From the NCBI RefSeq assembly GCF_963676685.1, contig NC_092354.1, positions 23,188,001 through 23,252,000 on the forward strand: a stretch of DNA of 64,000 bases, in the 5' to 3' direction. Shown in pieces: positions 9,623 through 52,839 of the stretch. The position numbers and the translations under genes were made by a program. Each line of letters starts with the position of its first letter. The first letter of the stretch is position 1. The stretch is from Mytilus edulis. Taxonomy: Eukaryota. The notes beneath the pieces were generated by a model. That model ran no database searches. It was given only the letters and a program-made list of their open reading frames with translations, and was not told the origin of the DNA.

Positions 9623-9939
9623 AGTAGTGTAGTATCACTGAACACCCAAAGCCCCTTGAGTGTGGGTGCATAATTATAACCCCCCACCCCTTTTCAAATG
9701 GGGCCCTAAATATGAGGGGGTTATAAAATATTGGGGTCAAAGTTTTTTCTTTTTAAAAATAAGAGGGGGTTATAAATATTTTGAGGTGAAAGTGTAAGCA
9801 CTTTATAAATGTTCACTTTTAAACACTCTAATAATAATACACTGATGCAATGCGAACCTTCACACTCTATTTTGAATAACTGTCACTCCTTATAGATTTA
9901 CACTTAAAAGCATTAGCTACATAAACAGATGTTTTAACA
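9623..9939 (+). repeat. Left terminal inverted repeat (317 bp)
   Basis: agtagtgtagtatcactgaacacc...acagatgttttaaca is the reverse complement of 30187-30502 with about half a dozen differences. Confidence 0.95.
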
Positions 9940-10486
9940 CCTGTGTGAACCCCCTCCTATATACGTTTTATCAGAAACAGGTGTCTAAGCATATGACAAA
10001 CCCAATCCTTTAAAGGAACGCATTGTATTTTTTTCAAGAAACACAAGTTAAAACAGATGTCCTAAAACCCTAGCAAACCACTCCTAAATACACTGTTAGA
10101 AACCAGTGTAAAAGCACACGTTTAAATCAAACAGGTGTCTTTAAACACCTAAGCAACCACTCCTTAAATATACTACAAGTGTTTAAACATCTGTGTAACC
10201 CACTCCTTTTAAATGATTCAACACCTGAAGTTGGCCCATCCTTATATACTAAGAAGTATAAATAGTTGTGGGTTCTATTTAAGAAAACAAATAAAATCGT
10301 GTAGCGACTAAACTATAATGTAAGTATGATTTTGTAATGTGTCTAATTGTTGTTTATGTTCGATATTTTCCAGTATGAGCAAATGACTTATTGAAATTAA
10401 CGTAATGTAATCTTTGAGCAATACATTTCTAGTACTGAATGTGTTATTAAAAAAAACCAATACAAATACAAGTACAAATACTTTAT

Positions 10487-12531
10487 TCATAATGTATGCG
10501 TAATAATGTTCTGCCTTCTTGGCTTTTCTTTCTCCAACTGGGTAATCATACCCTTTAAGATGTGAATAGTAGTAGAATGATTTTCCTCCATTTTCCCTAT
10601 CACTTCTGTTAATTGTTTTATCTGGGAGGATTTTTCCCCCCAACACATTGGTCTTATACTATCTGAATGTCTATCCAGTTGTTCTCTGAAAAACAAATAT
10701 TATAAAAATAAAAAGAACAAAGCAGACATATGTAAAACAAACACTGATCCAGCAAAAACAGTTATATCATTGTCTATTGATTTAAGACAGAAAACGCATA
10801 TTGAAGAAATAACACCTTTATAAAAAAAAATGCTTTTTATATATAATTGAGACTATGTATAAAGAGAGATAACTCGATATTTTTTTCCTATAAACAATGT
10901 AGTTGTGTGTATCTGTATCGTTGATGGTTACAATATCTTTTCCTTTTAATGCTTCTTTCTCTATTTTTCTCACTGTTACAATCTAACAACGTTCAAAGAT
11001 AATCATTGATTATCAGCCAGAGAGTTTTGTTTTTTTTTGTTCAGCGCTTAATCTTAAAGTATCCTACCCCATTTTTTTTACTTTTAATAATGATTAAGGT
11101 CATATCTCGTGTTACGGTTTCATATGTTTAATAAATATACTACGTTATGACATTAAATCTTGATTTTTGGTTTGTAAACAAATGGAAAAAAAAAACAATA
11201 AAAAAGCAACTTACCTTTTCATTTTCTGATCATTTTCTTTATCCTCTGTTATCAACCGTCGTTTTACCCCTTTTTTGCTGAATAAAAAAAATCATATACA
11301 ATATATACAAAATTGATTCATTGGTTGTTGGAAAAGATTTCATGTTCATTAGGTCAAAACTAAATTAACAATAAACACAATAGATAGGTTTTGTAATAAG
11401 GTGGTCCGCGGGAGATCAAGGTCGGAGAAATGTAGATTACCACGGGAAATCGGAGAGTATATTGCATAGGGACAGAAATTCAGCCTTGCAACAGGTCACC
11501 TACGGATCCCCTGGAAGAGCTGTTGCAAGGTTTCTTAACGTGCAATAAGCGTGACACTTTCTTTACACCAGACATCATATTTATCGCCCCTATTCTGACT
11601 GGACGTAACTGCAAATTTGTACATCATATACCGAAAATTTACATATCTAAAACTTACCTAGGGGATTTCTTTTTTTCTGGTGATAAAAGTGAACTCTCTC
11701 TTGAAGATTCCACTTCATAGAATCTCTTTACACCACTACAAAATTAATCGTCAAGTTCTCAATATCAACGAATGGTTAATTTTTATGTTTATTCTTGGAA
11801 TGAAAATGAATTAAAAAAGTAGAATATAAATGTTAACAGCACATTCCCATTTTTGTGAAGATATAATGTTGTAGTTTCACATAACAGATAGAAAATGCAT
11901 ATATATATATACATCCAATATTTTTTATTTTCGCGAAAAAATATAGACTAAGCAAAAGTTTATACCTGCAGTTACTGACATTTTTATCCATTACTCCGAA
12001 ATAGCATGTGTTTAATTATATTGAAATGTCTCAGAGTTACAAAAAAAAATAATGTTATTGTCGATACATTCGTGTCCCAAATTCTTAATTTCCATTTAGT
12101 TAGGTACAATATTCCTACAAAAATACAAGAAGAGACAAGGAAACTTACGATATTGGTTCTTCTTTAAATACCGTGCCAAAATGAATGGGGCTACTCTCCT
12201 CCCCTCTCTCATCTCCCCCACTCCATGGAAAGTCTTGTAAAAATAAATCAGTCTGCGAACTAAAAAAAGAGATAAATCATTAATGTTTTCTTGTACATAA
12301 ACTAAAATGTGTTATAGGTAATTGAAAAGATATCAAACTTCCATTATTCAAATTGATTATGTAAAAGAACTTAAATTGAAAAAAAAACCATGAATGTTTA
12401 TGAAATAAATCAAAAAAAGAATAAAATCGATGGTAACGATTTTAGAATGAACTTTGAATGTTTATAAATCAAATATGTACTCACTCGGTCCAGTTGTATA
12501 CCGAATCCTCGTCTGGTAAAAAATTTACCAT
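10487..12531 (-). CDS. Predicted 5-exon Maverick accessory gene, 165 aa; acidic N-terminus, NLS/RxL/KEN motifs, C-terminal coiled coil
   Basis: Exons 12531-12485, 12259-12149, 11735-11658, 11277-11215, 10685-10487. All four introns are phase 2 with GTRAGT donors and polypyrimidine-YAG acceptors, and join into one open frame. AATAAA overlaps the stop; a TATA box lies at ~12920. Confidence 0.7.
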
Positions 12532-13115
12532 TTTTCTTTTCTATTGTAAAAAAGTATAAAACATCAGAACTTTCGTAAATTGACACATACGCACACATAT
12601 ACATATACATTTGAAGTTCAGAAATTTATTAGAAATAATATTTATTCTAAATTAAGCAAGTCAAAGTTGTTTAACCACAAAAAATCTTTTTGTTTCACAT
12701 ATTCTTATAATTGATTGGAATCAAAACTATTTTGTCTAAAACTGTATCGAAATATTGATTTAAAAAAAAAGAAAAGAAAAAATTGAAACCCTTATTTTAA
12801 GACAAAAAAAAGTAAAGTTATCAATTAATGCACATACCTTTCTCGGAATCAAGTTTTAGGTTTGAAATTCTTACTTTTTTTCAGTTGTTTTTATATCAAG
12901 TTAAGGCCAACCTTGTCCTTTATACAGTCTAATTAAATTCCTCTCGTTTTTTTTTCCCATCACGAAACATCAATCAAAATAGTGATTAACAGAGTTTCAT
13001 GATTAACCTAAATTTTATTAATCTATCTAGCACATGTATTGTACTTTAGGAAATTCAATCCATTAACTTTTAACCAAAATTAGGGCGACCTAATTTATAT
13101 TGCGTAAATGGGTCA

Positions 13116-13340
13116 TTCGCGGTCATTTTTTTGGGGGGAAAAAACAAGATAAAAAAAAATGTGTAAAAGTTAGATTCGAATAGTTTTTCCGTAAAAATAT
13201 TCATTTATTCACTTTTTATTTTTAAAATCATATAATAATAAAAAATACTTATTAAATAAATAGTAAAAAATGCATGCATCGTGTATCCGTCCTCCCTCGT
13301 TATCGCATATTGACCGCGAAATACTTATTGACCGCGAAAT
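13116..13340. promoter_or_regulatory. Repeated TGACCGCGAA(A) E2F-like sites between divergent accessory genes
   Basis: tattgaccgcgaaat at 13308-13322 and 13326-13340, plus an inverted ttcgcggtca at 13116-13125; the reverse complement TTTCGCGG fits the E2F consensus TTTSSCGS. Confidence 0.5.
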
Positions 13341-13344
13341 CAAA

Positions 13345-15248
13345 ATGGCAGGACGTCACGTAATTTTGTCATTGGGACTATTATTGATGTATATTAATGC
13401 CACCTTCGTATTGTCAAAGGAAGAGAAATCATGTGTCCGTGGCTTTCGAGTCTGCAATAAAGTGTCCGAAACCATGCTGAGATGTGGAAGGGGTGCGAGA
13501 TGCATCACAGTGTACGACCCCACCACCATTGTGATATGCCAGTCCCCATCAACAGTAGTACGGGTTGGGTCAGGGGCTGGCATAAGCATCAATGGGTGCA
13601 AAGTTGAAGGTAAGATTTATTATGAATCTCTGTCTAAATATATATATTGTATCTTTTGATGTCTTTAATCATTCCCCCCCCTTTTTTTTCCCCTTTCTGT
13701 TTATTGCATATAGACACAAAAGTATATTTATTTCTCAAAGTATCTTCGAAACCACTGTTAAATTACAACTAAATACTTAAACGTATGCCCAGAAAATTAT
13801 ACAAAAATATTTATTTTAATTTATTGTCAAATTTACCAACAAAATTCGTTTTACGAACGAGTGTATCCAACTAATAAATTTCATTTGTCATAAAAACGAT
13901 GATAGAAAATGTCCCAGTCGTAGGTAAACAATTAAAAGTTTTAACAACATCCAAGAAGTGATGACAGCTTATATCAACATCTAAATGAATTTTGAGATGA
14001 CCCCTTTCCGATAAACTTCCGAAGTGTTTAGAGGAGTGGTAAGGGATTTTTATATTTAAATTTTAATTTTTTATTCCTGATTGCAACTATACAAACAAGC
14101 TACATAAAAAAACACCTATGATTTGAATATGATACCAGCTAGATTCATAATAAAGAAGCTGTATTTATAAATTGAATATGATACAAGCCTTTATATACAT
14201 ACAAATTGTTTTGAAACGGCTCCTTGATTTTATTAGAAACATCCGGTTCGTAAAAACAAGTGGAATGTAAAGTTAATTCTTACACTTTTCTTAAAACAGT
14301 TCTGGGAAAGAAGACAGGTGTGGAGAGAGAAGAGGAGATTATTATGAAGAACACAGAAGAAAGCGCAGAGACTGGGGAGGAAGCAAAAGAAAAGGCCACA
14401 TTTGCCTTCAGGTGGTCTGTGGCAACCCCACCTCCATGTGAGGAGAAAGAGACCATCCTTGGTATGTTCATAATAAAGAAAGAATAAAAAAATGTGAAAA
14501 GCAAGAACATATACATCCCCTCATCTACAACCATGTTATAAAAAAATATATATTTCCCTCTACAATTTTATAATCATGTAGGAAAATCCTTTGTTATATG
14601 TGAGACTTTATTATAAAAATTAAGAAAGATGTAGACTTTAGAGATGAGGGTTACTTGTGTTACTACAAATGCATTGGATGTTGAAGACAAGACTACTTCA
14701 AGTTTTTACATGTTTACAGTGCCCTCCTGTTATTAAATGAATTAATGCACATCTGTAAAAGTCTCTGATCTAGAAGTAAGTCTTTTATCAGAGACATATA
14801 TATGCCTCTAACTTTATATAGATATATCAAATGTATATGAAAATGTGGTATGAGTGCCAATGAGACAACTCTCCATCAAGTTACCATTTTTATAAAAGTA
14901 AACTGTAATAGGTCAAGGTACAGCCTTCAACACGGAGCATTCGTAATCAAATATCAGAACAAAAAAAACTTATTACACATTAGAGAGTAAAACGTTCATG
15001 AGAAAAAAGTTGAAAATCATACACAGTGTTTTTATTTTTAACACATAAAACTATCGAGTTACTCTTATCATAAATATTTTTTTCCAGATAAACTCATCAG
15101 TGCAGTGGCTGGAATTACACTCACTGTGGTAACCATTCTGGTGATCAGAGTGGTCAAGAGGAGGCAAAAGGTGGCCAGGAGAAGGGTCTCACTGAGAACA
15201 CCCCACAGACCCATCATGAGGAGGTGGACCTCCACACCAAACTTGTGA
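13345..15248 (+). CDS. Predicted 3-exon type I membrane protein, 195 aa (signal peptide, 6-Cys ectodomain, acidic stalk, TM helix, basic tail)
   Basis: Exons 13345-13609, 14300-14461, 15088-15248; two phase-1 GT-AG introns give one frame. N-terminal MAGRHVILSLGLLLMYINATFVLS; TM LISAVAGITLTVVTILVIRVV followed by KRRQK. Confidence 0.75.
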
Positions 15249-17226
15249 TTTTTTATGTTAAATGTAATGTAAATATATTTAGACTTAAAATTTAAATTAT
15301 ATCTGTGGTTTTTTTTAACAAACTCTTTTGTGAAATGCAATTAAATAAAGGATTTCTCATATTATTATACTAATGACTGGGTCATTGCATGCAATAGGTA
15401 CTAATGACTGGGTCATTGCATGCAATACCTATAAAAAAAATTTAATCACAATCATGCCCCCCTTGTATAAAAGTAATAATTTTAAAAAGGGGGAGACTAT
15501 CATTTTGGGATTACTTCCCTTGGTACAGTATCTATTAATATTTTCAAATATATTGGTATTCAAATTTTGATAAAATAAAACATAATAAAAACATTTTAAA
15601 TATGTATAAATATAAGGGTTAAATGTATGTATATACACTTTTCTTTATATCTTTTTTATATCTTCAATCAAAATTGTTATTACAACCACAGATATAATTT
15701 CAATATAGTGTAGAATAGTTTTTTGTATGTACATATTTGTGTGTGTGTGTGTGTGTGTGTGTGGTTTTAAGTTAAAACATTTGTTTAGGGTTACATTTAT
15801 AAAGATTAGATGTGGTATGATTGCTAATGAGGGAGCTATCCACCAAGTGAAAGGATCCGACATGTAACTATTGATCAACATATTGTACTGTCTTGAACAC
15901 TGAGCAAATTACAATTTCAATGTATAGAACATCCTTTAATGTTTTTAATTTGATTATTATTAATTTCAAATATTTAAGTAGAAAACAACTGGATTTTTTT
16001 TTATTATTTTACCAAATATTTTCACACGGGTTTAAATAATATTGATACAATTGAACCACTTTTTTACTGTTTTTTTTTAGAAAGTAAACATTGATATCCA
16101 TTGAAAAAAAGTCCTTCAAATAAATTTTACAGAAAATAATATAAACAATTTTACTCTGTCATAATGTGACCTTGAATAAACATTTTATCTGTGTGTAATA
16201 ATGTTGTTTTTATTTTGTGGTAAATGTTTATTTTATTTCATGATTAGAAGCTTTTTTTTTAATGTATGAATAAAACAGTATCTGGGTGTACCTATTTTTT
16301 TATGATTAGTTTAGTTAGTATTATATGATGTTATGCTTTGTTATGAATGATTCAGTACCAGGTGTACTTTTTGTGTTTTATAAATGTTATTGTAGTTGTA
16401 TTTGTTGTATTATCACATGTTTTATTTAAATGGTTAAAGGAAAGTATTAATGTGTCAAACATGTGGGGAGGGAGAGATAACTTTGTTTTTCACGGGGGGG
16501 GGGGGGGGGGGGGTGATTCTTTTAGTAATGTAAAAATCTGAATTTTTTTTTACTTATTCAATTTTGATTACTTATTTTTTTAACAATAAATAAATATAAA
16601 AAAGCATAACCCATGTTTTTTTTCTCTCTCGCTTATTTCTTATTAAAATATTCTAACATATTAATTTATCTTTACACGACTTAGTTATTTTCTTTATTTT
16701 TTTTTCTTAATTAGACAGTACTGATAAATTTTCATTTTGAGTCTTTGTAATGTATTTTTTGTATTTGTTATATGTAATAAACATATTTTTGAATGTACAA
16801 ATTGTGATTATTTCTTCTTTATTTGTAAATGAGCAATAGCTTTTTAAATTAGATTTTTCTTCTTTACCTGGTGGAAACAGCTGGTTTGTTTGCTGATTTG
16901 ACGAAAAGAAAATATTGATAAGTGGGGGGGTAGGGCTAATGAAACAGTAGTTCTAAAGAATTGTTTACGAACATCTTATCATACAAGACAGAAGACTGGA
17001 TCTGGGTATTGCAGTGAGACATTAAATACCAATGAAAAAAAATCTTACAGCTTTATCAAAACAATAACATGATTCCAACGTAAGCAACTCTCACCAAAAA
17101 AAAACATATACACATACACACCCACACTAACAAAACATGCATTGCTTCATTCCTGAACCTTAAAATGAATGGTTATTGGTAAAAATCTGGAAGCCAGTAC
17201 TGAGTTCCTTATCGTCATAATAACAG

Positions 17227-20200
17227 ATGTTTCTCCAAACTTGTGTTTTTGTGCCAATGAAGAAGGTAGGTTATGATGATGGTTCAACTTCAAATGTCTA
17301 TCTAGGTTTAAAACCTGTATCCTATTTTCAGATGAACGACTGCCCAGTCTTAGAGGATATCATAAATTGTTTTACTTCGATTGATCAATTATTGACGTTT
17401 GCTCACGCCTATGGAATGAATGATGACCCTTACGTAATTTCCAGATTAAACCATTTAAGGAGGCAAGCAAACCCATCGCATTTTCAGTGTTCAATATGCG
17501 ACGAGGTGTCTAGTACACAAGTAAAGTACGAATTACACGCACTTGAGCACGATATAATAACGGAATTCAACATGGGCCTATTTGATTATCCACATTCTAG
17601 TTCTAACCATATGGATACTAATTCAGGAAATTCCTTTACACGGAAAACGATAAAAAGAAGTCGGAATGAAAAAAACACCGATTGTTCATACTCAACAACA
17701 AGAAACACCGACACTGATGTGCCCATGTACAAAAAATCTCGTGTATCATCCCAAAATCAAGCAATCTCTACACATCAGTTTGGGGCGGGCATTGAGAGTG
17801 AACCTGCATACACATTTAGCCAAATAAAAGAGCGAACATACGCTAAAACTGGAGCCATTGACAAGACTTTTCAGGCCAAATTTACCAGTCAATTGCACGA
17901 CAAGAAATTGTCAGACATAACAGAAGACCTACATGGTTTGTTCGACGATATCCTGGATACAGTACGTCAAGATTCAGATGCCAATAGTCTCGCTCGTGTG
18001 ATCATAGAACACAACGGCTTGACTGATCCGATTGTAGTCTCTCTACGTGAACTGAACAAAATGGACTCATCAATAGTGATGGACGAAATAAGCAAGGTGT
18101 TACAAAGTAACGAAGAACTACCTGTTGACGACAGTTGTACGATTACAGTGGGTCGAATAGATATTCCATCGGGAGGCGGGCGACTCCGTATCACCAAATT
18201 GACGGGGGAAAACAACAGTCTAATGAGAAAACGTTCTATTGTGAACATACCCAGTACGACTATGTGCATGCCGATGGCTATAGTCGTGTGTTTTCTGAAA
18301 ACATGTCGACTAGTTTCCCCCGTAGAATGGCGTCTTCTTACAGAGGGAGACTCTAGTTCCATGCCAGATAAAGTTTTGAAGCACAAATGTCACCCGCATT
18401 GGTATTATAAACACGTTGTAGAAAAGGGGAGGAAAGAATGTACTTTATTTTCTAGACGTCTTTGTGAATTGGTTGGAGTGAGTACAGAAAAACCGTGTAA
18501 TATCAATGAAATAGAGCTTTTTGAAAGACTGTTAAACATACAAATTCTTGTTATTTCAGCTAAATTAGGGAATAAATTCATTCGAGTCGGGGAAAACGAT
18601 TCACTGCGCAAAAAAGTGTTTCTCTATCTGGTTGAACAAGATGATTTCCAACATTTTACAGCTATTGTTAGTCTCACGGGCTTCTTTTCCTGCAATTATT
18701 TCTGTAGTACATGCTTAAAACCGTACAACAATAGAGACCAGCATTCGTGTGAAACAACATGTACTGTCTGCTGCAGCTCGGACTGTATAAACACGTCCAG
18801 TATAATGTCTTGTCGTACATGCAACAGGATTTGCAGATCACTGGAATGCTTTCGAAAACACGTAGAGAAAAAACAAACACGAAAAGGAGGATTATTACAT
18901 TCGGAATGCGACAAACGATATCAATGTAAAATATGCAAAAAAATACTAGTTTGGGACGATCGTTCTCCCGCCATTCACCAATGTGGGGAATGGAAATGTC
19001 CTTGCTGCAACGAATATTACACGGGAGAACACCTGTGTTATCAGAGAAGAATTACCAAGGAACTTACCGATAATGTTATGATTTTTTTCGACACCGAAAC
19101 GAAGCAGGATACATTATTACAGTGCGAAAACGGCTACCAACCTACAAATACAAGGTGTGAAAATTGTACGGGCAAAGGTAAAAAATGTGAAAAATGTAAA
19201 CTGTGTCAGACATGTAGCAAATCTTGGTGTGGTTCTAGCGAACACACAGTAAACTTTATTTGTATGCAGACGGCTTGTGACCTCTGTAAAGATAAGCCAA
19301 TACTACACAATACTAAATGTTCGTATTGTGGTGTTCGTTGTCCGCTTTGTTCTCAACGTGATAAGAAAGTTTTCAAAGGCGGACCTTGTGCTAACACTTG
19401 TGGGTTTCGAATGAAACTGTTCAAAGGTAGTACCGCAACGGCCGAATTCTGCAGAACAGTATTTTCTGACCAATATAAAAATGGGATTGTCCTCAGTCAC
19501 AACGGAAGTGGTTACGATAACTATTTTCTTCTTGAATGGTTACTCTCCAACTCCATCCGTCCAGAAATAATTTTCAACGGGAGTAAAATTATGTACATGT
19601 TAGTGCAACGTGGATTGAACATCAAGGTGTTGGACTCCTTAAACTTTCTTCCAATGAAACTTTCGAAAATTCCTAAAGCGTTTGGATTGACGGAATTGAA
19701 AAAAGGCTATTTTCCCCATTTTTTCAACAGAGAGGAAAATCAAAATTACGTTGGTTCCTACCCTCCCACCAGGTATTATGGAGCCGATTACATGAATACA
19801 TCAGACAGAGAAAACTTTTTAACTTGGCACAAGTCACGCCAAAATGAAATTTTCGACTTTGCAAAAGAAATGGAGGCGTATTGTGTTAGTGACACGACAA
19901 TTTTGAGAGAAGGTCTATTGAAATTCAGAAATCTAATGTTACAAGTCACTGGAACAGAAACCGAGATCACCGATCCCGAAACCGGACATGTAAAAATAAC
20001 GTATCCAGGCGGGGTAGATCCACTTGATTACGTTACAATAGCCAGTGTATGCATGGGAATATACAAATCGAAGTTTTTAACCGAGGACTATGACATACAA
20101 GTAACTACTCTCACTGCAGACCATGTCGAATGGAAACGTATGAAACCTACAGAAGAGGGGTTCGACGTGTGGCATGATGGTAATTGGTATTCGTCCAATA

Positions 20201-22381
20201 CCTATTTATCTGAAAACCCTCAACATAGATTCGGAAAAAGAAAATTCGTCAAGAGCCCCCTCGCACATGTACCTTCTGAGGGATATACCAGAAGATACAA
20301 TCACAGTAAAATATCGATTGCTTGGTTGGAATGGGTCAAGAAACAGAACAAGATTCATATACAACACGCTCTGAATGGAGGTGAATTCAAGATACCAGGG
20401 ACGAATTATCACACCGATGGTTACTGTCGGGAGACCAATACAGTGTACGAATTTTTAGGGTGAGTTTGTGAATGAAGTTGTGCCTTAAAATATTCTTAAA
20501 AATTTGGTCGCCGCCGCCGCCGCCCGCCCTCCGCACGCGCGCGTAATCAATTACGCGTATTCCATCATATGTTATAAGTTACGCGTTATTCATGACGCGT
20601 TCTAAGTTACGCGTAGTGCAGAACGTATTCATTTACGGGTATAAATATTTCATGGTACCGAAAACGTGTGTTAATTTCATAAAAAGTTCGGTAAAATGTT
20701 TTGCTGTTGGTGTACCATATTGCATACTCATGTGTGTCATTGCATGCTCAAACGTTCATGGTATTGTTCAATTTTCTTTTTTTTTTACAGTTGCTGTTTT
20801 CATGGTTGTCGTGTATGCTACCCAAAAGATAGATCGGAAACGAAACATCCACTTACTAAACAATCCATGGAGGAGTTATATGTTGTCACAAAAAAGAGAG
20901 AGTCAACTATTCGAGATCTTGGATACAGATATCGTCATATATGGGACCATGAATTTAGACAAGATATTGACAAAAAAGACGATCTTAAAACGTTCATTGA
21001 TAATTTGGATTTGGTGGAGAGAATTTCGGAGAGGGAAGCATTCATGGGCGGAAGATGCGACGGGACGAAAATGTACTGCAAAGCAGATATTGGAGAAAAG
21101 ATTAAATATGTAGACTTTACATCCCTGTATCCATGGACTAATAAATATTCTCGATATCCTGTTGGTCATCCCGAAATCATAACGAACGATTTCAAAGACA
21201 TACATAATTACTTTGGACTGTGTAAATTGAAAATACTGCCACCAAGAGGACTTTACCACCCTGTATTACCATATCGATGCAACAAGAAACTCACTTTTCC
21301 TCTCTGCAGGACTTGTGTAGAAGCGGAAAACAGAAGTACATGCACGTGTTCAGAGGAAGCGCGAGCATTCATCGGTACTTATGCTACACCCGAGGTGTTT
21401 TTAGCCGTTAAAAAAGGATATAAAATTATAAAGATTTATGAGATATGGCATTTCCCTGAAACTACAAAATATGACAAAGAAACGAAATCCGGGGGTCTGT
21501 TTTCAGACTATGTGCAATTGTTTCTCAAGATAAAACAGGAGAGTTCCGGATTTCCAAAAGATTGCAAAACAGAATTAGAAAAGCAAGAATACATTCGACT
21601 CTATAGAGAAAACGAAGGCATACATCTTGACTATGATAACATCAAAGAAAACCCCGGTTTGAGAAGTTTGGCGAAGTTATGTCTTAACAGTTTTTGGGGA
21701 AAATTTGGCCAGAGACTGATCCTAAAGAGGCATTCATACTTCCACGAAACGGAATGTGACAAATTCTTTCAGGTGTTGTCAGATCCGACGAAAATGGTAG
21801 AAAACTTTCACATAGTTTCGAACGATACCATACAATTAGAATGGTCACAAAACTCACTATTTCCACCTGTGGATGTAAAAACGAACATTTTCATTGCAAT
21901 ATTCACCACAATGTGGGCACGGTTAAAACTGTACTCGGTGTTAGACTTAGTCGGTAGTGAATGTTTATATTACGATACCGACAGCTGTGTGTATTTGTCT
22001 CGTAAAGACACAAAAGAGCCAACACTTGGAAATTACCTTGGCGAACTGACGTCCGAAATATCACCAGAGGAAGGTCACATTGTGGAATTTGTATGTGGAG
22101 GCCCTAAGAACTATGCATACAGAACTTTAAGTACAGAAACATGCAAGGTGAAAGGTTTTACTCTGAATTTTACGAATTCAAACATAGTGAATTTCGATGC
22201 TATTAAAAGCATGATTTCTCGTGATAGGAGTGTGCATAAAACACTGACTAACCCAAGCAAAATCACCCGCCTTGCAACGCACAGAAAAATATATAGTCGA
22301 GAGGAAAACAAAAAGTACTGTATCACATACAATAAACGAGTTTTACTAGACAATTACGACACCATTCCTTACGGATATTGA
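17227..22381 (+). CDS. polB: Protein-primed family B DNA polymerase polyprotein (~1607 aa spliced), two exons 17227-20459 and 20791-22381
   Basis: ExoI FFDTET, ExoII HNGSGYD, ExoIII YCVSD, LDSLNF, KGYFP, motif A YVDFTSLYP, motif B KLCLNSFWGKFGQ, motif C YYDTDS. Splicing restores the YEFLG|CCFHGC..C motif. The true start may be a downstream ATG (e.g. 17332). Confidence 0.95.
20460..20790 (+). other. 331-nt phase-2 spliceosomal intron in pPolB containing a CpG-rich ACGCGT array
   Basis: Donor GG|gtgagt, acceptor ttttctttttttttttacag|T; removal joins the two pPolB ORFs in frame. Confidence 0.9.
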
Positions 22382-22453
22382 TTAAAGAGAGACATTTTTG
22401 TTTTACCACAATTTATTGAGAAATGTAGATAGTGTTTGTCAAAACAAATAAAT

Positions 22454-22978
22454 TCAATATTTTAACCAGTGTTTCTTTTCGTTCGTATTTCGCATGCCGG
22501 GTACAACGTCACGCCTTCCTCCTCTTCTCTTAACGAACAGTCCACCTGATTGTTTGAATTGACACTTTCTTTTTCCTGTTATTAACCTTTTAGGTACATG
22601 TAGTTTTTCTAAAATGTCTTTGAACGTTTTGTCACCAATTGGCGTGTTTTCCCCAGGACACACAGAATGGCGAATGAGATCAATAATGTGTGACCCCTTA
22701 ATGCATTCTCCATTAACGACCAATTCACCTTGCCCGTTATGACTCAGCTCGTTTTGATCTTGAGCCACAATGAACTTGTAAAGTTCCACAGCACGTTTGT
22801 TCATCCTTTTAGGTATAGAATGTACTATCATTGACAGCAACGTACTATCGTTTTTTTCCCCTTCGTTGGTATCTTGATCCATTTTTTTCCCATCTGTGTC
22901 TTTCTTGTTCGTTAGGGATGTCTGTTTCCTTAAACGATCATAGCGTTCCTTTGATATCAGCATGAGTTCCTGGGCCAT
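22454..22978 (-). CDS. Conserved Maverick hypothetical protein (probable start MAQELMLISKERY)
   Basis: GELVVNGECIKGSHIIDL and PIG..F..L..LHVP motifs resemble a recurrent Polinton ORF; QSGG motif and basic C-terminus; its ATG overlaps the upstream stop (TAATG). Confidence 0.7.
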   Translation of the reverse strand: MAQELMLISKERYDRLRKQTSLTNKKDTDGKKMDQDTNEGEKNDSTLLSMIVHSIPKRMNKRAVELYKFIVAQDQNELSHNGQGELVVNGECIKGSHIIDLIRHSVCPGENTPIGDKTFKDILEKLHVPKRLITGKRKCQFKQSGGLFVKRRGGRRDVVPGMRNTNEKKHWLKY

Positions 22979-23244
22979 TACTGTTCGTTCACCAGGGGCA
23001 AAATTGGTTTGATCAAGAGTGCTATCAGAATCGGATGTCTCACCAAAATATTCCTTTTTCGCCTGTGTGCAATCGATCGGGAACACAGGGCACGAATGTT
23101 CAACTGGTAAGGTCGGAGTTTTCTTATATGATGAGGACTCATATGCAAAACACCTCTGTAAATATTCAATGCTATTTCCGATAAAATATCGATTTGCTCA
23201 TTCGTTGCAGACTGAATCAACACTACGTTGTCGGGATTCGGCAT
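22978..23244 (-). CDS. Small basic Maverick protein (core/membrane-lytic-type candidate), 88 aa
   Basis: ILSEIALNIYRG...L..Y...IRAL...RRKRNIL followed by hydrophobic ILIALLIKPIL; typical ORF beside the Polinton ATPase. Confidence 0.7.
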   Translation of the reverse strand: MPNPDNVVLIQSATNEQIDILSEIALNIYRGVLHMSPHHIRKLRPYQLNIRALCSRSIAHRRKRNILVRHPILIALLIKPILPLVNEQ

Positions 23245-23337
23245 GATACAAAAAAATAAGAAATGTACTGTATGATCTGATTCTGAGTGACATTTTCTAA
23301 CGTAATGATGTCATGTGGTAGTGTTCTCTACTTTTAT

Positions 23338-24006
23338 TCACTTTGGTGTATACACTACTGTGACGTCATCAGATGGGAAGATCGACGTTCGTAACCGATA
23401 CCTTTTATCCGTATACGGTGATAAGTCACATATGAGATATCCACCAATTGAAACAGAGCTAATAGCTTTTTCGTACGCCTCTTTGAAATAATTCACTTCA
23501 CCTGGAAAAGCCTGACTTGCAAAGGCAAGGAGTTGTTTTTTATCCCTGTTATTAGCCATCAGGACGAATATATGAATATTTAAACTTATGGATCTAAAAT
23601 GTGTTCCTTTTTCAAACAGGTTTTGTGTGATGTAAATCACAGAACAGTTTCGATGGTGCGATAGAACCGTAACCAGATGTAAAGCGTCGTCGCTTTTGCT
23701 TATTAATCTCATCATGTCATCAAGAACAATGACCGTGTGCTTCTCAGGGTTTGTCCATTCAATGAGATCACTTCGAGATGGTAACCCCTCGTGCAAGTCG
23801 AAATTGGGTATTGTATTTTCAGCTTGTTCTAAAGTAGGTGGAAACTCAGTATAACAATAGACGATTCTCACCGGAGGTATCTTGAACATGGTTGATGAAT
23901 GTTTTAGTAGTTTCATAACAAAAGTTGTTTTCCCACTTTGCGTTGCACCCGATACCATACAAGTGCATGGACTTTGGAAAGGTAGAAGCGTTGTCGACGT
24001 TTCCAT
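23338..24006 (-). CDS. FtsK/HerA (A32-like) genome packaging ATPase
   Basis: Walker A GATQSGKTT, Walker B VIVLDD, SHHRNCSVIYITQN motif, RSISLN. Confidence 0.95.
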   Translation of the reverse strand: METSTTLLPFQSPCTCMVSGATQSGKTTFVMKLLKHSSTMFKIPPVRIVYCYTEFPPTLEQAENTIPNFDLHEGLPSRSDLIEWTNPEKHTVIVLDDMMRLISKSDDALHLVTVLSHHRNCSVIYITQNLFEKGTHFRSISLNIHIFVLMANNRDKKQLLAFASQAFPGEVNYFKEAYEKAISSVSIGGYLICDLSPYTDKRYRLRTSIFPSDDVTVVYTPK

Positions 24007-24085
24007 GACGGTGTCTAAAGTATGTGTGCGAGGATAGGTTTGAGGAGAGACAATTAAATACTGTGAAAAATGACTCTATATTTTA

Positions 24086-24556
24086 TTAACAAAAACTAAA
24101 ATACGTATTAACAAAATTAAGAACAATACGGTCGTTAACATCATCATCTGAATGAAAAAAACATGCAATATCTTCTAATGAATAATTTAAACATACAATC
24201 AACATTAAAAAAGTTAAAACAAACAAACCACAGTGAGAAGAGTTCTTCGACTGCACTTGAACATTAAAACATTCGTACTTTCTCACGTTAGAGTTCAAAA
24301 AGAGATTTAATTCTTCACCATAATATTCTGGCGGGTTCCCGAAACTATCAAAAAACATCCCTTCAGATTTGTTCTTGAACACGATGCCTAACCAATGTTC
24401 TCCTGGTCGATCGGCGCTGTCGCTGTTAACGATATAGGCACTAGGGTACTGTGTCATATCATCCGTTGGTAAGCTGTTTCTAGCATACACTCCTTTCACT
24501 AAATTTTGTAAACACGGATTTGATCTGATGGCACATTCTAACTCGTATCCATTCAT
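24086..24556 (-). CDS. Adenain-like cysteine maturation protease
   Basis: GEHW (His), FFDSFG (Asp), QVQ...HCG (Gln/Cys); catalytic residues intact. Confidence 0.95.
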   Translation of the reverse strand: MNGYELECAIRSNPCLQNLVKGVYARNSLPTDDMTQYPSAYIVNSDSADRPGEHWLGIVFKNKSEGMFFDSFGNPPEYYGEELNLFLNSNVRKYECFNVQVQSKNSSHCGLFVLTFLMLIVCLNYSLEDIACFFHSDDDVNDRIVLNFVNTYFSFC

Positions 24557-25870
24557 GATTGCACGTAACGAACGTTACGTGATTTGTCTATTTCCAGAAA
24601 CGAACCAAATACTCCGAAGGCAATACAGGTAACGGCTGTAGGAAGTGCAGTACTGAATTTCATTTCAAGTCTCACATTTCTATGTTTAACCAAGTTTATA
24701 TAGTCATCTCCCAATCCGCTTGGGTCCAATTGGAAAGCATATAAGGTGTAACCCTTACCAAAATCTTCTCTGGAAATGGTAAGTCCGGCATCTTTATTTA
24801 ACTTTTCACAGGCTTCAAATAAATTAGTGTATGCCACTGCATATTGTCGATTATCTCCAAAGTCCAGTTTTAAGGGTCTTGACGGAACGCTCTCTCCATT
24901 GACATATAGACCTACGTCAGTGGCGTTGTAGTGATTAGTGATTAAAAAAGAACGGATTTGTCCCATAAGAACCGTTACCGCTATCTTGTGATATTAAACC
25001 AACCACCAGAGTACTAGGGCGAATGGTAAATAGATTGTCCCAAATGAACTCACTTGAGGATTTGTTCCTTTTGACTTCAGTACGTTGGAAATAGTAGCGT
25101 ACAGGTTTTATTTCGATCTGTTTCATATGATTAACGAGGATACCAGGATCGACTTTAATTTTACAGGCCTTGTAAACACAGTCTAATAGCTCTAACTTGT
25201 AGGCAGCACCATCTTCACCTGATATGACAAAAAACGGATTGGTAGTACGATACAACTTAATCGAGAGGTCAACACCTTCAATTAAATGATGGTCTAATGA
25301 AAATATATCTTCAAAAAGCGGTCCTTCCATTTCGAATTCTCTGCTTGCCTTGATAAAATCTCGACGAAGGACTAGACCTGTGTTTGCTCCTGATTTCCCA
25401 TCTGTAGAAGCTAAATTGCCGATATCTTTCATAAAAAGCTGTGACTGGAGTTGTGATTTCTGCTCGTCTGAACCACTGTTCAAAATCGTCTTAAGGTAAG
25501 CTTTCCAAGGGTAGTTTGAAGTGCTTACGGAGACAAGTTTATTGTTCATATACACATCGATTTGTGACCACATGGCTTGGAGTGGTAAATTAACAATACT
25601 TGTCGTATCCGTGTCATCAAAGGCACTACCATCACCTTTGACGATCTTTGCACGAACGTACAGTCTACTCCGTCTCAAATCCATGTATTCAGGACCTTGT
25701 CCAGAAATGAAAAATTCAACTGTAGAAGCATCTGATGATGTAAAGTTAGAAAGCGGTCTTGTTTCTGAATAAAAAATCCTGTCGATCGCTACTTGATTTT
25801 TAGGTTCATCGAATAAATCTAGCTCCATTGGTATGTTAATGTCTGTGTTTTCATCGTTCAAATAAGCCAT
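24553..25870 (-). pseudogene. Double-jelly-roll major capsid protein, frameshifted by a 7-bp duplication
   Basis: ELDLF...Q...RP...EFFI...YMDLRRSRLYV N-terminus and GYTLYAF/RLEMKF/LEIDKSRNV C-terminus. GTGATTA is duplicated at 24931-24944; removing one copy restores NPFFFNHYNATDVGLYVNG. Confidence 0.9.
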
Positions 25871-26340
25871 TATTTTGTCTTTACTCTATCGAAAATGGAT
25901 GGGGTTGTGTCGAAATCTAATCTGCGAACTCTGTTTTGTTTTCTCCTCTTCCCGAGAGTTTTTTTTTTCTTAGAGCTTTTCTGTGCTCTTACTCCTTTTG
26001 AGTTGACGATTGAAATGCTTTGTTTTTTTGAGTTTTTTCCTTTTATACCCTTGGACATTGAACTTGACTTTTTCCTTCCAATGTACGGAGTTTTGTCTTG
26101 CTTTTGGTGTTTTAGTTCCGATTCTGCGCGGTCCTCAATTGCAACAGTTGAAGCCACCAGTTCTACTTTAGGTTCGTTTGTCGGTAATTTATTTTTCGGA
26201 AAAACAAACCGACGTTTCCTACTGTAACGTTTCGATAAACCGCCTCCTGACTGATTGTTTACACGCTTCTTTCGATTACTCGCTTTTTTTATTGATTCTT
26301 CCCAAGCTAGTACATCGCTTACGTATGGTGAATTGAACAT
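25870..26340 (-). CDS. Lys/Arg-rich core (DNA-condensing)-like protein, 156 aa
   Basis: Highly basic, contains QSGGG, and sits between the minor and major capsid genes with TAATG overlaps on both sides. Confidence 0.7.
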   Translation of the reverse strand: MFNSPYVSDVLAWEESIKKASNRKKRVNNQSGGGLSKRYSRKRRFVFPKNKLPTNEPKVELVASTVAIEDRAESELKHQKQDKTPYIGRKKSSSMSKGIKGKNSKKQSISIVNSKGVRAQKSSKKKKTLGKRRKQNRVRRLDFDTTPSIFDRVKTK

Positions 26341-26804
26341 TACTGCAGAAACGGATACTTTTTTAAATGAAGTGTCACGCAGCAGTTCTTGTTGATGAAT
26401 GAGCTCGGTTGTCCAATTTCATCAGTTATATAGATATGGATTTGGTTCAGTCGCCCTAGACGTACAGGGACAAAATAGGGGACGCCAAATATTAAGTTTG
26501 TTTTATAGTGTTTCTGTTTGTTTACAGTATATTGCTCCGTTGTTTCTTTCTTTATGTAAACTTTTCGAAGAAGGGGTTTCTCTGAGGACCCCACAAAACT
26601 CTCTTCACAGATGTTTGAATAAACGTAGATATCCTCTATGTGCTTCGAAGTATCTTTATACGTGATACTTATTTCTGTCAACCCCACCATCCAATATCCT
26701 GTTAGATCTATTTGTCTATCCAGTTGTATTGTAAAGTTACATGCTGTGTTGTTTTCAAAAAGAAGATTTCCATCTGTTGATTTAAGAACCATGCGTATAC
26801 TCAT
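26340..26804 (-). CDS. Minor capsid protein (penton, single jelly-roll)
   Basis: LKS....F.NNT..NF...L...I.L.G.W.VGLTEI, IYVYSNI...FVG...PLLR and VTLHLK motifs typical of Polinton mCP. Confidence 0.9.
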   Translation of the reverse strand: MSIRMVLKSTDGNLLFENNTACNFTIQLDRQIDLTGYWMVGLTEISITYKDTSKHIEDIYVYSNICEESFVGSSEKPLLRKVYIKKETTEQYTVNKQKHYKTNLIFGVPYFVPVRLGRLNQIHIYITDEIGQPSSFINKNCCVTLHLKKYPFLQ

Positions 26805-26843
26805 CTTGGCACCGAATGAAGAAAAACAAAGATTTGAAACTAC

Positions 26844-28009
26844 TTATTCGTTTTGAATATCAGACATCGGTAACCAAGCGTCAAATTTTTTGGGGTAGCC
26901 AAGCCAACGTACCAAAGCTTGATTAATCCCATTCTGTTTCCGCTTTCTTAATATTTTTTCGATTTTCCATATCGTGTTTTTCTCGTCTTTTCTAACCTTC
27001 TGAAGTTCTGGATGATGGAAGGAACCAAGTATGTTTTCAGTTAACAAATCTTTGAGTAAGTAAGTGGGCAAACGATCTCGGTAATATCGACGTCGAATTT
27101 TAAAGAGCTCTTCTGTCCATTTCTGTTGATACCCTCTCTGAAACGGATGACGTTTAAATGTAATCCTGACCAGATCATTAACTCTGTATTTAAAGCTGTT
27201 GTCTGGTTTCTTTTTTCCCTTTGATGACATTGTTTGCTCATCTTTAGTTCTCTTCTTTTCATTTTTTTTTTGCTAGGGTTTCGGGCAAAATATGCACTCA
27301 GTCGAACTTCATCTGCGTTTTGTTTGTTCACTTCGGACGGGGTATATCCACCTAGTGAACGATGCGGTCTTTTATTATAACTCGCCACCATATCCTGTAT
27401 AACGTCAATGTATTTATACGTTTGTTTGTGTCTGAAATATGTGTACATGATTGTTTTAATACTTCTGATACTTCGCTCCACAACAGCTGACTTGGTTTCA
27501 TTTTGAGAATAGTATGTGTTTATCCCTTCTTTTGAAAGATAACCGCGTACATACTTATTGACAAACTCTTTACCTAAATCAGAACGGATAGAGGTTGGTC
27601 TTCGGCTTCCAGATAGAATTTTTTTTAAAGCTTTCAGCACACTTTTATGTGTTTTATCTTTCAGGCTTTCTATCCACAAATGTTTTGAGAAGACGTCAAT
27701 AACAAACAACAAATACTTCACACCTAAATTTTCACTCTGAAAGCTATCAAATTGAGCCAAATCTATTTCCCATAAACTGTCTATCGTGTTGACAACATAT
27801 CTACTTCTTCTGAACTTACGCACTGTATTTCTGGATAAACTGTACGAGTCCTGATCCTGTAACCATTGCCTTATTTTATGTCTTCCTATTTTAAATTTTC
27901 CATCTTTTTTTACTATGCGATACAGTTTATCAGGACCTGTAAATGATGCCGGATGTTTTAGATCATACCATATTTTGTGTAAGTAGTCCTCATAGTTTAA
28001 TGAACTCAT
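26844..28009 (-). CDS. int: Retroviral-like (rve) integrase with C-terminal chromodomain; 1-nt frameshift in an A10 run
   Basis: WEIDL / IRSDLGKEF / VVERSIR DDE triad. The second frame gives FKYRVNDLVRI...KWTEELF and chromodomain IEKILRKR...ALVRWLGYPKKFDAW. Frames switch at T10 (27262-27271). Confidence 0.9.
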
Positions 28010-28266
28010 TCTGACTAAAGATATTTTAAAGTAAGTTGGATATTTAAACACATTTGTTCTTCAAATGTTAATTGATTGCGGATTGTGTGTGTGTGTGAGT
28101 CATTTTTCGTTTTTTAGCCATTATTGAGAATTACTTCCAATGCGGCATTATGATATTTACTGCTATATGCATGAAAAAAATTCAGAATGATTTTGATTTC
28201 TTGTGTTTATACACAGTAAAACAAAAAACAAAAACAAAAAAATAAAATATAAATAATTGCTGTTGT

Positions 28267-28791
28267 CTATGATCTGTTCACATTGTCGGCTCTTTTCAAG
28301 GCTTGGTTAATAGTTGATCTTATTCTCAGTAGGTAATTCCATTGTCTTTTGTTTAAAAATATGCCACTTGTTATATTTCCGATGAAATGTCGAATACCTA
28401 TCCAAACTTGTTTTTGGTGGGTGCAGATAGTCACTTTATATTGTTCTGGTAAATCAAACTGTTTTAGATATCCACATGATATGTTGTTGATTCCACTGCT
28501 CTGATAATCTTCTGCTCCGTTGATCTTTTTACAGTCTGTATAGTTATAATGCGCACTATTCTTAATCATTCCACTGGTCAAAGCTAAACTTGTAGACATT
28601 AATGCCAGTAGAACAACGACTCCAGTCCATTTTATAATGTTTATATGCATGGTGTATTTTTCATATATTGACGATATATTTGAAACCACACTTGACTGAG
28701 ATGGTATTCTACCTCCCATAGAAAACGTTATAGGTGGCATCTCAGTTTTATCAACTAATCCAGTCTCACATGATACTGTTCTTGACATCAT
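28267..28791 (-). CDS. Membrane-anchored PC4-like (ssDNA-binding fold) protein, ~174 aa
   Basis: Hydrophobic WTGVVVLLALMSTSLALTSG; C-terminal FDL...YKVT.....VWIGIRHF...SGIFLNKRQWNYL matches the PC4/Sub1 pattern; TATAAAA upstream. Confidence 0.65.
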   Translation of the reverse strand: MMSRTVSCETGLVDKTEMPPITFSMGGRIPSQSSVVSNISSIYEKYTMHINIIKWTGVVVLLALMSTSLALTSGMIKNSAHYNYTDCKKINGAEDYQSSGINNISCGYLKQFDLPEQYKVTICTHQKQVWIGIRHFIGNITSGIFLNKRQWNYLLRIRSTINQALKRADNVNRS

Positions 28792-28861
28792 GTTGTTTCC
28801 CGAACGAGTAAAAGACCTAATGACAATATAACACGAAGTCAATGCTTTTATACACAGCTGT

Positions 28862-29680
28862 TTACAAAATTTCCCCGAATGGATTACAACTTGAACAGTT
28901 TAACATGCTCTCTTGTACTTGGTGATCTTCTCCTAAAATACAAGGAACAATGTTTTCCAGTTCTGGTACAACCTGTCTTACTTCAGTAAATGTTCCTTTA
29001 AGAGCTTCCCACTTATCGTATGTTAAAGAAATACCTTTCTTTGTTGGAACAACTTGGCTTGAATTGGGAATCATCCAACGCTGTCGCACGTCTACGGTTG
29101 GATATATTCTATTCACAGTAACGTACACACCTTTACCAAGATGAAATGTCATTTCGGGATTTCCGTCAACATCATCAATCATCTGACCTATAGCATCATC
29201 TATGTCACTAGCATACATTTCCAAAAGCACCCATTGTGGTAAATTCAAAGCTATTCCTTTTTTGGTTGGAATATAAGCACCTGTGGAGTTTTTCTCGTAT
29301 TTACGAATATGGATCAACAATTTATCACACCATTCGTTAGGAACAACAAATATGTCTCCACCTATAGGTAACATACATAGATTTTTGCTCACTCCTGAAG
29401 TATCAGTTATTGAACTTTTCAAAAGATTAACCAGATTTGATTTTCCCTCTAAAGTAAGAGCAGAGCAAAAACTTTCGAATGCTTGTGCACCTCTTCTCTG
29501 AATAGTAGATATCAGCTGTCTAGTTTTTGAATACGAATTCGACTGTTGTAAAATATCTTCCTTCAATTCGTCAGTAAGTATTCCAGCCTGGTATAGATGG
29601 TCTGTTACAACATCCACCGGCGTTTCTTTAACCAATTTCACGTAATTACGCTGAAGAGAATCTTTGTGTTCTTTCTGCAT
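28862..29680 (-). CDS. CARD-PC4-PC4 fusion protein with C-terminal Cys/His motif, 272 aa
   Basis: N-terminal LQRNYVKLVKE...DHLYQAGIL...RQLISTIQRRGAQAFESFCSAL is a CARD. Two IR/VR...PTKKGI.L...W..L PC4 signatures follow, then C..H..C..CNP. Confidence 0.9.
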   Translation of the reverse strand: MQKEHKDSLQRNYVKLVKETPVDVVTDHLYQAGILTDELKEDILQQSNSYSKTRQLISTIQRRGAQAFESFCSALTLEGKSNLVNLLKSSITDTSGVSKNLCMLPIGGDIFVVPNEWCDKLLIHIRKYEKNSTGAYIPTKKGIALNLPQWVLLEMYASDIDDAIGQMIDDVDGNPEMTFHLGKGVYVTVNRIYPTVDVRQRWMIPNSSQVVPTKKGISLTYDKWEALKGTFTEVRQVVPELENIVPCILGEDHQVQESMLNCSSCNPFGEIL

Positions 29681-29784
29681 GTTGTCAGTAACTTTGTTTC
29701 ACTAAAACTGATGTCGTGAACAACTTTTAACAGTGATTTTATACTATTTAAATACTGGGAGTGTCACAATGATGGTAAAAACTA

Positions 29785-30156
29785 TTATTCTAAATTTTTG
29801 GGGTTATAGTGTGTATGGTGTATATTAAATGTAATTAAGTTGTATATTTTTAATCTATGTTCTGGAGACAAAATAGGTGTAATTATCGTCTCAGTCGTGT
29901 GAATACGTCTTTTAAAACGATGGTGATCAATTGCAAACTGTATCCAATGACTTTTCCTTGCTTGTCGGTATGAAAAGGACCAAGCTATCAAGTGATGTGT
30001 TTTCTTTATTTCTTCTCCTGGTAAAAATTGAACCTTCAAATAATAAAAAAAGGTACATCATTAAAAATAACCGAAGCATGCATCAATTGAAAGATATGTT
30101 GGATTCTTTTAACATTTACTTACAGTTCTCCTTTCTTTCGAAAGTACGTTTGACAT
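29785..30156 (-). CDS. GADD34/CReP/ICP34.5/DP71L-like PP1 regulatory subunit, 2 exons, 93 aa
   Basis: Exon 1 (30156-30124) MSNVLSKERRT|gtaagt; 90-nt intron; exon 2 (30033-29785) VQF...W...QARKSHWIQFAIDHHRFKRRI...E..ITPILSPEHR, i.e. RVxF plus the PPP1R15 C-terminal signature. Confidence 0.85.
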
Positions 30157-30186
30157 TGCAACCAGATAGAGTTATCTCTTTTTGTT

Positions 30187-30502
30187 TGTTAAAACATCTG
30201 TTTATGTAGCTAATGCTTTTGAGTGTAAATCTATAAGGAGTGACAGTTATTCAAAATAGGGTGTGAAGGTTCGCATTGCATCAGTGTATTATTAGAGTGT
30301 TTAAAAGTGAACATTTATAAAGTGCTTACACTTTCACCTCAAAATATTTATAACCCCCTCTTATTTTTAAAAAGAAAAAAACTTTGACCCCAATATTTTA
30401 TAACCCCCTCATATTTATGGCCCCATTTGAAAAGGGGGTGTGGGGTTATAATTATGCACCCACACTCAAGGGGCTTTGGGTGTTCAGTGATACTACACTA
30501 CT
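30187..30502 (-). repeat. Right terminal inverted repeat (316 bp)
   Basis: tgttaaaacatctg...tgttcagtgatactacactact. Confidence 0.95.
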
Positions 30503-45802: not shown

Positions 45803-46566
45803 TGTGCTGTCTCACAAGTAAACACAGCTAACCATGGTATATCTTTATTGTTAATTGTTGTACAATTGTCATATACTGAATGCGGTGAAAAGCTACAATA
45901 TAAAAATAAAACAATACTGTAGAAATTTGTTACAGAAAAAATACCTTAATAAAAATAGCAACATGCTAAGAACATAATTAGATGAAAATGTCTGAATTAG
46001 CAATTTATATAGCACATAGCAAGTGTGCATTGTTCCAGTATCACATAGAAATATTAAAAGACAGTACAAATTCACAAAATTGTAACTGCATGTTTATATA
46101 CCTGGTGTACCATGAAAATATCTCAAAGTAGAAAAATATGGCTTATCAGTAGAAGTTACCTAAATCTACACTTTAATTACACAATTAAATGTAAATAATA
46201 AATGAAATTATTTCTAAATTTCAAATACATGTTAAAAAATATCATAATTCTCAAAAACAATCATAATATAATAACGCGGATGGCGTTCCATACATAAAAA
46301 ATCTCGCAACTTGACCCTTTGACAAAATAATCTGAAAATGCCGTTATCGCGCAGCATACAAAAACTACAATTAATATGCATTAAGAACTATTTAAATGTG
46401 CACTAAAGACATGAAAAATTTACTTACATTGTGCTTGGATTAACAGATTATTACTTTTAGATGATAGAATTAAAACGTGATAGTTTCAAGGAAGTTATCG
46501 TAATTCAATAATAAAAAAATCAAATCGGAAAAAGCTTTACAAAATTCCGGAAATCGTTTCAGCATA
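45803..46566 (-). repeat. 3' LTR
   Basis: Direct repeat of 52881-53644 with about 4 substitutions. Confidence 0.95.
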
Positions 46567-52700: not shown

Positions 52701-52839
52701 ATAACATGAAACTTGACACTTTTGCCCTTTTTATGTGAGTGTCCTTTTGTTCCTGGTGGAACAGAGTTCCCTTTTCAGTCATCTGACTAGTTCGTTGATC
52801 TGTGTCTTCTTCACGACTGTCTGTAAACATGGCGGACAT
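46768..52839 (-). pseudogene. BEL/Pao gag-pol polyprotein split into four ORFs by frameshifts
   Basis: Gag Zn knuckles CLRC..H....C/CDIC...H....H; protease YAMLDDHS; RT FYVDDGL; RNase H YCDASE...IPRLEL; integrase GVDMFGP/SDRGTNF/GGVWERMI. Confidence 0.92.

Follow-up and report, generated by a model that had tools for sequence, protein, structure and literature searches.

Mavericks, or Polintons, carry an (AGT)2...(ACT)2 end motif, and accessory regions are general among them (accessible part of PMC8097293); their core genes are described as intronless in the available portions of that paper and of 10.1101/2022.07.12.499685. The available portion of the latter also describes intron-bearing cargo in nematode Mavericks, namely the wasp proteases and krma kinases, which lie between the left repeat and the core. 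For the animal Polintons known as adintoviruses, the accessible text of PMC8502044 reports that E1A/E7-like 'Oncoid' genes have been proposed, with LxCxE, CR1 and paired CxxC motifs. Viral RxL proteins that bind cyclin A include HCMV pUL21a and the beta-herpesvirus kinases (PMC7518283, available portion), and Acm1 and securin are APC/C substrates or pseudosubstrates with KEN and D boxes (PMC3690534, available portion). The functions of Maverick accessory genes are largely open, and only the nematode cargo has been tested.

Here, we analysed a 64,000-nucleotide stretch of the Mytilus edulis genome (the window; contig NC_092354.1, positions 23,188,001 to 23,252,000), for which an initial annotation had proposed a hidden, element-borne gene encoding an S-phase regulator analogous to E1A and E7. 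A literature search that excluded the supplements of PMC8502044 (the 'Adintoc' lists) and of 10.1101/2022.07.12.499685, and that covered few subscription journals, turned up no publication that deals with the gene or with the cargo of Mytilus Mavericks; the accessible portions of PMC11957031 and PMC10748475 contain nothing on the gene.

A five-exon gene and its splicing

The gene lies on the minus strand and consists of five coding exons and four introns (Table 1), which join 498 nt into a frame of 165 amino acids with no internal stop. All four introns are phase 2, with GTGAGT or GTAAGT donors and AG acceptors with a pyrimidine tract. Exons, phases and the 165-residue frame match those first proposed, as does the AATAAA at the stop. 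The TATA box originally placed at ~12920 exists and is retained in close copies only; the box common to the diverged subfamily is the one listed in Table 1. The donor of the proposed non-coding first exon is likewise present and is kept in subfamily B (see below), and the window copy of this exon lacks ~21 nt found in sister copies. In the protein, exon 1 contributes a DEDS..W segment common to both subfamilies; exon 2 a short acidic helix and the invariant SSPxHFG, its FKEE not being conserved; and exon 5, in order, a short helix, a PMxWGE turn, a 35-residue amphipathic helix (a predicted coiled coil) and a PRR tail. Exon 3 is poorly conserved and is missing from some NCBI models.

Table 1. 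Features of the Maverick, the five-exon gene and their surroundings, in window coordinates.
Feature	Position	Strand	Remarks
Maverick/Polinton, 20,880 bp	9623..30502		AGTAGT...ACTACT ends; ~310-bp terminal inverted repeats
Left terminal inverted repeat	9623..9939		~550 bp downstream of the gene's stop
AATAAA, candidate polyadenylation signal	10487-10482	-	overlaps stop codon
Coding exon 5 (199 nt, with TGA)	10487..10685	-	most widely conserved part of the family
Coding exon 4 (63 nt)	11215..11277	-	basic cluster; VKRRL (subfamily A only) and conserved KEN..KM
Dispersed 300-bp repeat in intron 3	11329..11625		31 of 56 matches in the DNA search
Coding exon 3 (78 nt)	11658..11735	-	Ser-rich, disordered; SPEK and start of SPSK
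Coding exon 2 (111 nt)	12149..12259	-	frame; both flanking joints in run X4
Coding exon 1	12485..12540; ATG 12531, coding 12531-12485 (47 nt)	-	frame; joint to exon 2 in run X4
Likely non-coding first exon	12838..12870 (5' end provisional)	-	GTATGT donor at 12837; no spliced reads seen
TATA-like box TATAAAAA	12895-12888	-	kept in both subfamilies; likely promoter
Second spliced cargo gene	13345-13609, 14300-14461, 15088-about 15250	+	divergent from the first
Intron-like gap in PolB	20460-20790	+	GTGAGT donor, pyrimidine tract, AG
GC-rich stretch in PolB gap	20505-20640		(GCC)n, then repeated TACGCG words
Right-end ORF	28270-28899	-	unmatched; hydrophobic segment
Right-end CARD-PC4 gene	28865-29698	-	CARD and two PC4 domains
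LTR retrotransposon, Bel/Pao-like	46768-52863	-	identical direct repeats 45803-46102 and 52881-53180; long open frames

NCBI already holds a model identical to the window protein (XP_076111463.1) and another that differs by one residue (XP_071138713.1), both named 'uncharacterized protein', so the gene is uncharacterised rather than hidden. All named homologues come from M. edulis, M. galloprovincialis and M. trossulus, and nobody had previously tied the models in these three species to a virus-like element. The inner exons 2-4 are all symmetric (phase 2 to 2), and NCBI models without exon 3 (P0002, P0006) or without exon 4 (P0014) exist; these models and the symmetry suggest that motif-bearing exons may be skipped in frame in some forms.

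Splicing was assessed in assembled contigs and in raw reads. In one of four contig sets, that of run X4 (a related organism, the material being RNA by guess only), the joints 12259/12485 and 11735/12149 correspond exactly to introns 1 and 2. The skipped stretches, 12484-12260 and 12148-11736, have GT-AG ends, and a single contig, at a depth of 2.5-3, carries each joint. The proposed junctions of introns 3 and 4 and of the 5' intron, by contrast, were not seen in any of the four sets, and unspliced pieces occur in the other three and in X4 too. In the raw RNA, three of four runs cover the gene ~2-20-fold, with a strand bias and running through the introns, and the fourth has almost none; among 15 of the 19 joint records, no joint falls at a predicted intron. 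First mates map to the minus strand over the gene and mostly to the plus strand over its divergent neighbour, so that the RNA covering the two genes is either sense for both or antisense for both. Splicing occurs, the mature message is scarce in the sampled runs, and the five-exon gene is real.

Copies, selection and the host element

A DNA search placed 12 loci, including the window, in subfamily A (25 of 56 matches), and protein searches added 13 more diverged loci. The sister subfamily B, with ~59% DNA and ~45% protein identity to A, matches A in its exons and their phases and also has the first donor and the TATA box. Splice sites in the 11 sister A copies read GT or GC at 33 of 35 donors and AG at 35 of 40 acceptors; most genomic copies are damaged, and only two of the 11 keep the five coding exons in frame, all with usable splice sites. 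Exon phase and frame are conserved in sister copies, as the initial annotation had anticipated. In all nine comparisons with subfamily A copies (L023 and L024 left out), pN/pS is 0.14-0.54. Against B it is ~0.45 (bootstrap 0.34-0.59 for L033), with pN of 0.28-0.34 and a pS of 0.69-0.79 that is near saturation. Because these pairwise counts all share the window as one side, the values are not independent; the contrast in DNA identity between exons and introns of A and B is weakly informative. Purifying selection maintains the gene, giving an orphan family with a selection signal in which two subfamilies show which residues matter.

The Maverick that encloses the gene has significant Pfam matches to PolB (PF03175), rve (PF00665) and adenoviral protease (PF00770), a chromo match, and weak matches to the A32 ATPase and the double jelly roll. 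Its capsid and integrase frames are broken in the window copy. The left and right flanks of this copy differ where a 6-bp target-site duplication would lie, which may reflect rearrangement. The gene, 10487-12895, is upstream of PolB (from 17224) in the left accessory region. A left-repeat match adjoins it in 10 of 11 subfamily A copies; in two B copies PolB is found at the matching place, ~70% identical over the N-terminal region, and the neighbouring membrane gene is present in one B copy. The proposal that the element carries the gene is therefore upheld: it sits between the left repeat and the core and travels with Maverick copies. In the same genome, no homologue was found within 20 kb upstream of PolB at six loci of more distant polymerase families (one of seven loci, with core and right end, was left out), and the same profiles found both control loci. 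With no homologue at these six loci, Mavericks as a group can evidently do without the gene.

Several further features of the element and window were observed. The second cargo gene encodes 195 amino acids, six of them cysteines; a signal peptide is predicted, and the protein further has an acidic stalk, a hydrophobic segment and a basic tail. The gene's exon 1 has no Pfam match, and a 37% identical homologue lies in a B copy. The right-end CARD-PC4 gene and ORF also have counterparts, 73% and 47% identical, in a sister family. The gap that splits PolB falls at one shared codon position, with GT/AG edges, in the window copy and five others, from four polymerase families that are 60-99% identical; two of those copies have a second such gap, and two more distant families have a continuous PolB. 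Within this gap, the GC-rich stretch is surrounded by AT-rich DNA and is nearly identical in L059. L040 and L041 are internally deleted elements in which B-like exons 4-5 stand directly beside the right-end ORF. The Bel/Pao-like name of the retrotransposon comes from a reading of its ORFs. Copies of the gene cluster on contig C11 of genome G000 (20 of 20 exon-2 matches; 22 of 24 for B exon 5); members of other Maverick families, in contrast, are scattered across many contigs.

The orphan gene, its neighbour and the PolB with its intron-like gap suggest that these mussel Mavericks rely on host splicing. If they do, annotation by ORFs alone would overlook their cargo.

Conserved blocks, motifs and possible roles

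In a 10-protein alignment, the invariant positions are most of the exon-2 block around SSPxHFG, KEN..KMK, a D and an H of the next helix, and both G and S in the WGE turn; PM.W, the residues of the heptads and the basic tail are nearly invariant. The best-conserved parts are SSPxHFG, PMxWGE, the coiled coil and the PRR tail; apart from the coiled coil, the initial annotation's motif list lacked them. Both subfamilies share the basic clusters of exon 4 and the PRR tail. Among 1.84 billion proteins, three distant metagenome fragments (P0016, P0018 and P0019; 36-37% identity, E 4e-8 to 4e-4) keep the PRR, W, G, E, Q and L of the exon 5 domain, which probably extends beyond the mussel subfamilies. 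Two other matches were dropped as repeat artefacts (P0015, mucin-like; P0017, a repeat protein), the one viral-contig match (L039) was rejected as a 14-residue stretch lying antisense to a phage tail gene, and none of 25 candidates from JGI metagenomes was confirmed.

The largely disordered protein with an acidic N-terminus and a coiled coil that had been claimed is also what is predicted here. AlphaFold2, run with 10 sequences, gave a mean pLDDT of 61.5, with helices at 16-25, 88-109 and 118-152, disorder at 29-88 and a long helix at pLDDT 95-97; exon 5 alone gave the short and long helix at pLDDT 84. In six of six proteins, hydrophobic residues fill 64-73% of the long helix's a/d positions, versus 13-23% elsewhere, in the best heptad register chosen for each protein. 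Searches of Pfam, of the PDB by sequence, with Foldseek and with VIA-align returned no family or fold and at most generic coiled coils; the ESM Atlas yielded no usable match (best feature score 0.81, the chance level), and no DNA-binding domain was found in the protein. The first 39 residues have a net charge of -9 with nine W/F/Y/L, and B-type N-termini have -6 and six. Equation 1 of PMC10550315, in its accessible portion, is an activation-domain rule for a 39-residue tile that misses many true domains; none of 10 family proteins passes it, the window N-terminus being one residue short.

The cell-cycle motifs originally named, VKRRL, SPEK, SPSK, KEN and FKEE, are all present in the window protein (RxL at residue 85, SPxK at 71 and 77, KEN at 92, FKEE at 47). 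The search patterns for RxL, SPxK, KEN and SUMO sites are ELM-style. In 20,000 shuffles of the protein, single motifs recurred at frequencies of 0.62 (RxL), 0.38 (SUMO), 0.20 (one CDK site) and 0.06 (KEN), two CDK sites at 0.018, and all four motifs, a set chosen after seeing the sequence, at 0.0003. KEN is invariant across both subfamilies in the 10-protein alignment and present in four of four B exon-4 matches (tblastn); it is lost in one damaged B copy (EEN) and, along with other lesions, in three of 11 A copies. Standards for KEN and RxL were taken from the available portions of PMC3690534, PMC8728146 and PMC7518283, the first of which gives a KEN consensus of D or N at -1, P at +3 and accessibility. 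Here the preceding residue is D in A and E in B, P at +3 is missing, and KEN falls in a low-confidence predicted helix that is predicted to be continuous with the conserved C-terminal block; shuffling the K/E-rich B exon also produces a KEN in 21% of cases.

A single RxL is found in each subfamily, at non-homologous positions. In A it is RRL or RQL, with a varying middle residue; in B the VKRRL position is an acidic run, and RR[VT]LF stands at the C-terminus, after the coiled coil. RRVL or RVPL occurs in two of the three distant metagenome fragments. FKEE, SPEK and SPSK are confined to subfamily A and have no counterpart in B, and one minimal SP site (ESSP) shows no variation among the 10 aligned proteins. 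No LxCxE, CR1 pattern (DEN)(LIMV)xx(LM)(FY) or paired CxxC occurs in the 19 family proteins scanned; the window protein has one cysteine, and the sole CxxC among the 19 lies in an unrelated extension of the fused model P0008. Conservation across copies therefore holds for the KEN residues, fails for FKEE, SPEK and SPSK, and restricts VKRRL by position to A. The analogy to E1A and E7 fails by definition, LxCxE, CR1 and paired CxxC all being missing, and motif conservation supports it only in part.

Tentatively, and ahead of the alternatives below, we read the product of this spliced, selected accessory gene as a small nuclear adaptor that is probably timed by the cell cycle. It would act in the nucleus, imported by its basic clusters; the C-terminal coiled coil is predicted to pair, presumably with itself, and the conserved motifs in the acidic, disordered N-terminal half would grip a host nuclear factor. 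It may be an early regulator of the element's own genes, a reading suggested by the TATA promoter at the element's end and the acidic-aromatic N-terminus, which resembles an activation domain. We favour an early regulator, on modest grounds: the N-terminus, acidic and aromatic in A and B alike, falls one residue outside the rule of PMC10550315 (accessible portion), and the motifs of a CDK-regulated S-phase driver are the least conserved. Against this reading count the failure of all 10 family proteins to pass that rule, the lack of a DNA-binding domain match, raw RNA cover that runs through the introns, and the six Maverick loci with no homologue. KEN and RxL would tie turnover or phosphorylation of the protein to the host cell cycle, as a substrate and with no push into S phase; KEN and the recurring RxL are as compatible with a substrate timed by the cell cycle as with a driver, and each is weak given how often it arises by chance.

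The alternative closest to the original proposal is an active manipulator that would shift host cells towards a replication-friendly state, its RxL docking cyclin A/E and/or its KEN and D-box-like tail competing for APC/C coactivators. The invariant KEN..KM and ESSP, the D before KEN in A that matches the available consensus of PMC3690534, the RxL kept as RRL or RQL in A, as RR[VT]LF in B and as RRVL/RVPL in two of three fragments, and a viral precedent for an RxL overlapping a basic cluster (PMC7518283, accessible portion) all argue for it. It is nevertheless unlikely: both full CDK sites and the SUMO site are missing in B, the RxL is non-homologous in position and its pattern appears in 62% of shuffles, KEN has the defects of context and frequency described above and is lost in some copies, and LxCxE, CR1 and CxxC are missing. 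We hold equally doubtful the specific form in which a dimeric, LxCxE-free coiled-coil effector would engage cyclin-CDK or APC/C, with an RxL that moved between subfamilies and was never lost. Such an effector would be a second, non-Oncoid route of Polinton control over the host cycle, and a true KEN/RxL reading would mean a new type of viral cell-cycle regulator. About as likely as the manipulator is a non-transcriptional accessory, which would either counteract host silencing or innate defence or serve as a scaffold in replication or virion assembly, its coiled coil binding a host or element protein. The same anatomy that suggests a nuclear adaptor would serve here, the element has other host-facing cargo (the CARD-PC4 gene and the predicted membrane protein), and an A-B identity of ~45% for the gene, versus ~70% for the PolB N-terminal region, fits a host-facing role. 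No known antagonist or virion protein was matched by sequence or fold, however, and the lack of a homologue in the other Maverick families tested counts against a core virion role.

The remaining explanations are less probable still. A selfish toxin or antidote by which the element would bias its own inheritance, like the nematode Maverick cargo msft-1, would share with wasp and krma its introns and its place between left repeat and core (10.1101/2022.07.12.499685, available portion), and nearly all copies lie on contig C11 (20 of 20 exon-2 matches); we consider it improbable, because the protein has no enzyme fold or ubiquitin-like domain and most copies are damaged, with two of 11 sister A copies intact in all five coding exons. 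Somewhat less credible is a host-captured, dominant-negative partner, either a degenerate, Max-like bHLH-zipper or a helical regulator of the geminin/CDK2AP1 kind, which the protein may resemble. A helix, short loop and long heptad helix are predicted, and a PDB profile search returned a Max chain (1r05) at E = 0.82. That match, however, falls short of significance and comes eleventh in a list of generic coiled coils; with a query that is short and helical, Pfam showed nothing for HLH, geminin or CDK2AP within its reporting limit, Foldseek gave nothing, and VIA-align gave tied coiled coils (best Z 5.3, rmsd 9.1, 76 aligned). A neutral passenger, whether a captured host fragment or a chance frame without function for the element, would accord with the scarce mature mRNA and the decay of most copies. 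It is largely refuted by purifying selection in every comparison, by the conserved promoter and splice sites (donors 33/35 and acceptors 35/40 in A), and by the absence of an unlinked host donor gene among the matches examined.

Relation to known cargo and viral regulators

The small, motif-bearing, acidic and largely disordered mussel protein, encoded upstream of PolB, recalls Oncoids, E1A/E7 and LT, but it lacks the LxCxE, CR1 and paired CxxC of Oncoids and has a coiled coil, a KEN and four introns. As in the viral RxL proteins that bind cyclin A, a candidate RxL of the mussel protein adjoins or overlaps a basic cluster, within a stretch predicted to be disordered. The position of this RxL varies by subfamily, however, and the protein shares no sequence similarity with those viral ones. 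With Acm1 and securin the mussel protein has in common small size, disorder, a conserved KEN, a D before KEN (in A) and an RxxL in the B tail. It differs from them in that P at +3 is missing, the KEN runs into a conserved helix and A has no D-box-like tail. Unlike the nematode wasp and krma cargo, the mussel gene encodes neither an enzyme domain nor a ubiquitin-like one; no host donor family turned up for it, nor any evidence of transfer between distant species. Like that cargo, it is spliced, lies between the left inverted repeat and the core, and evolves faster than the core. The gene is thus a new orphan family within a known kind, spliced Maverick cargo.
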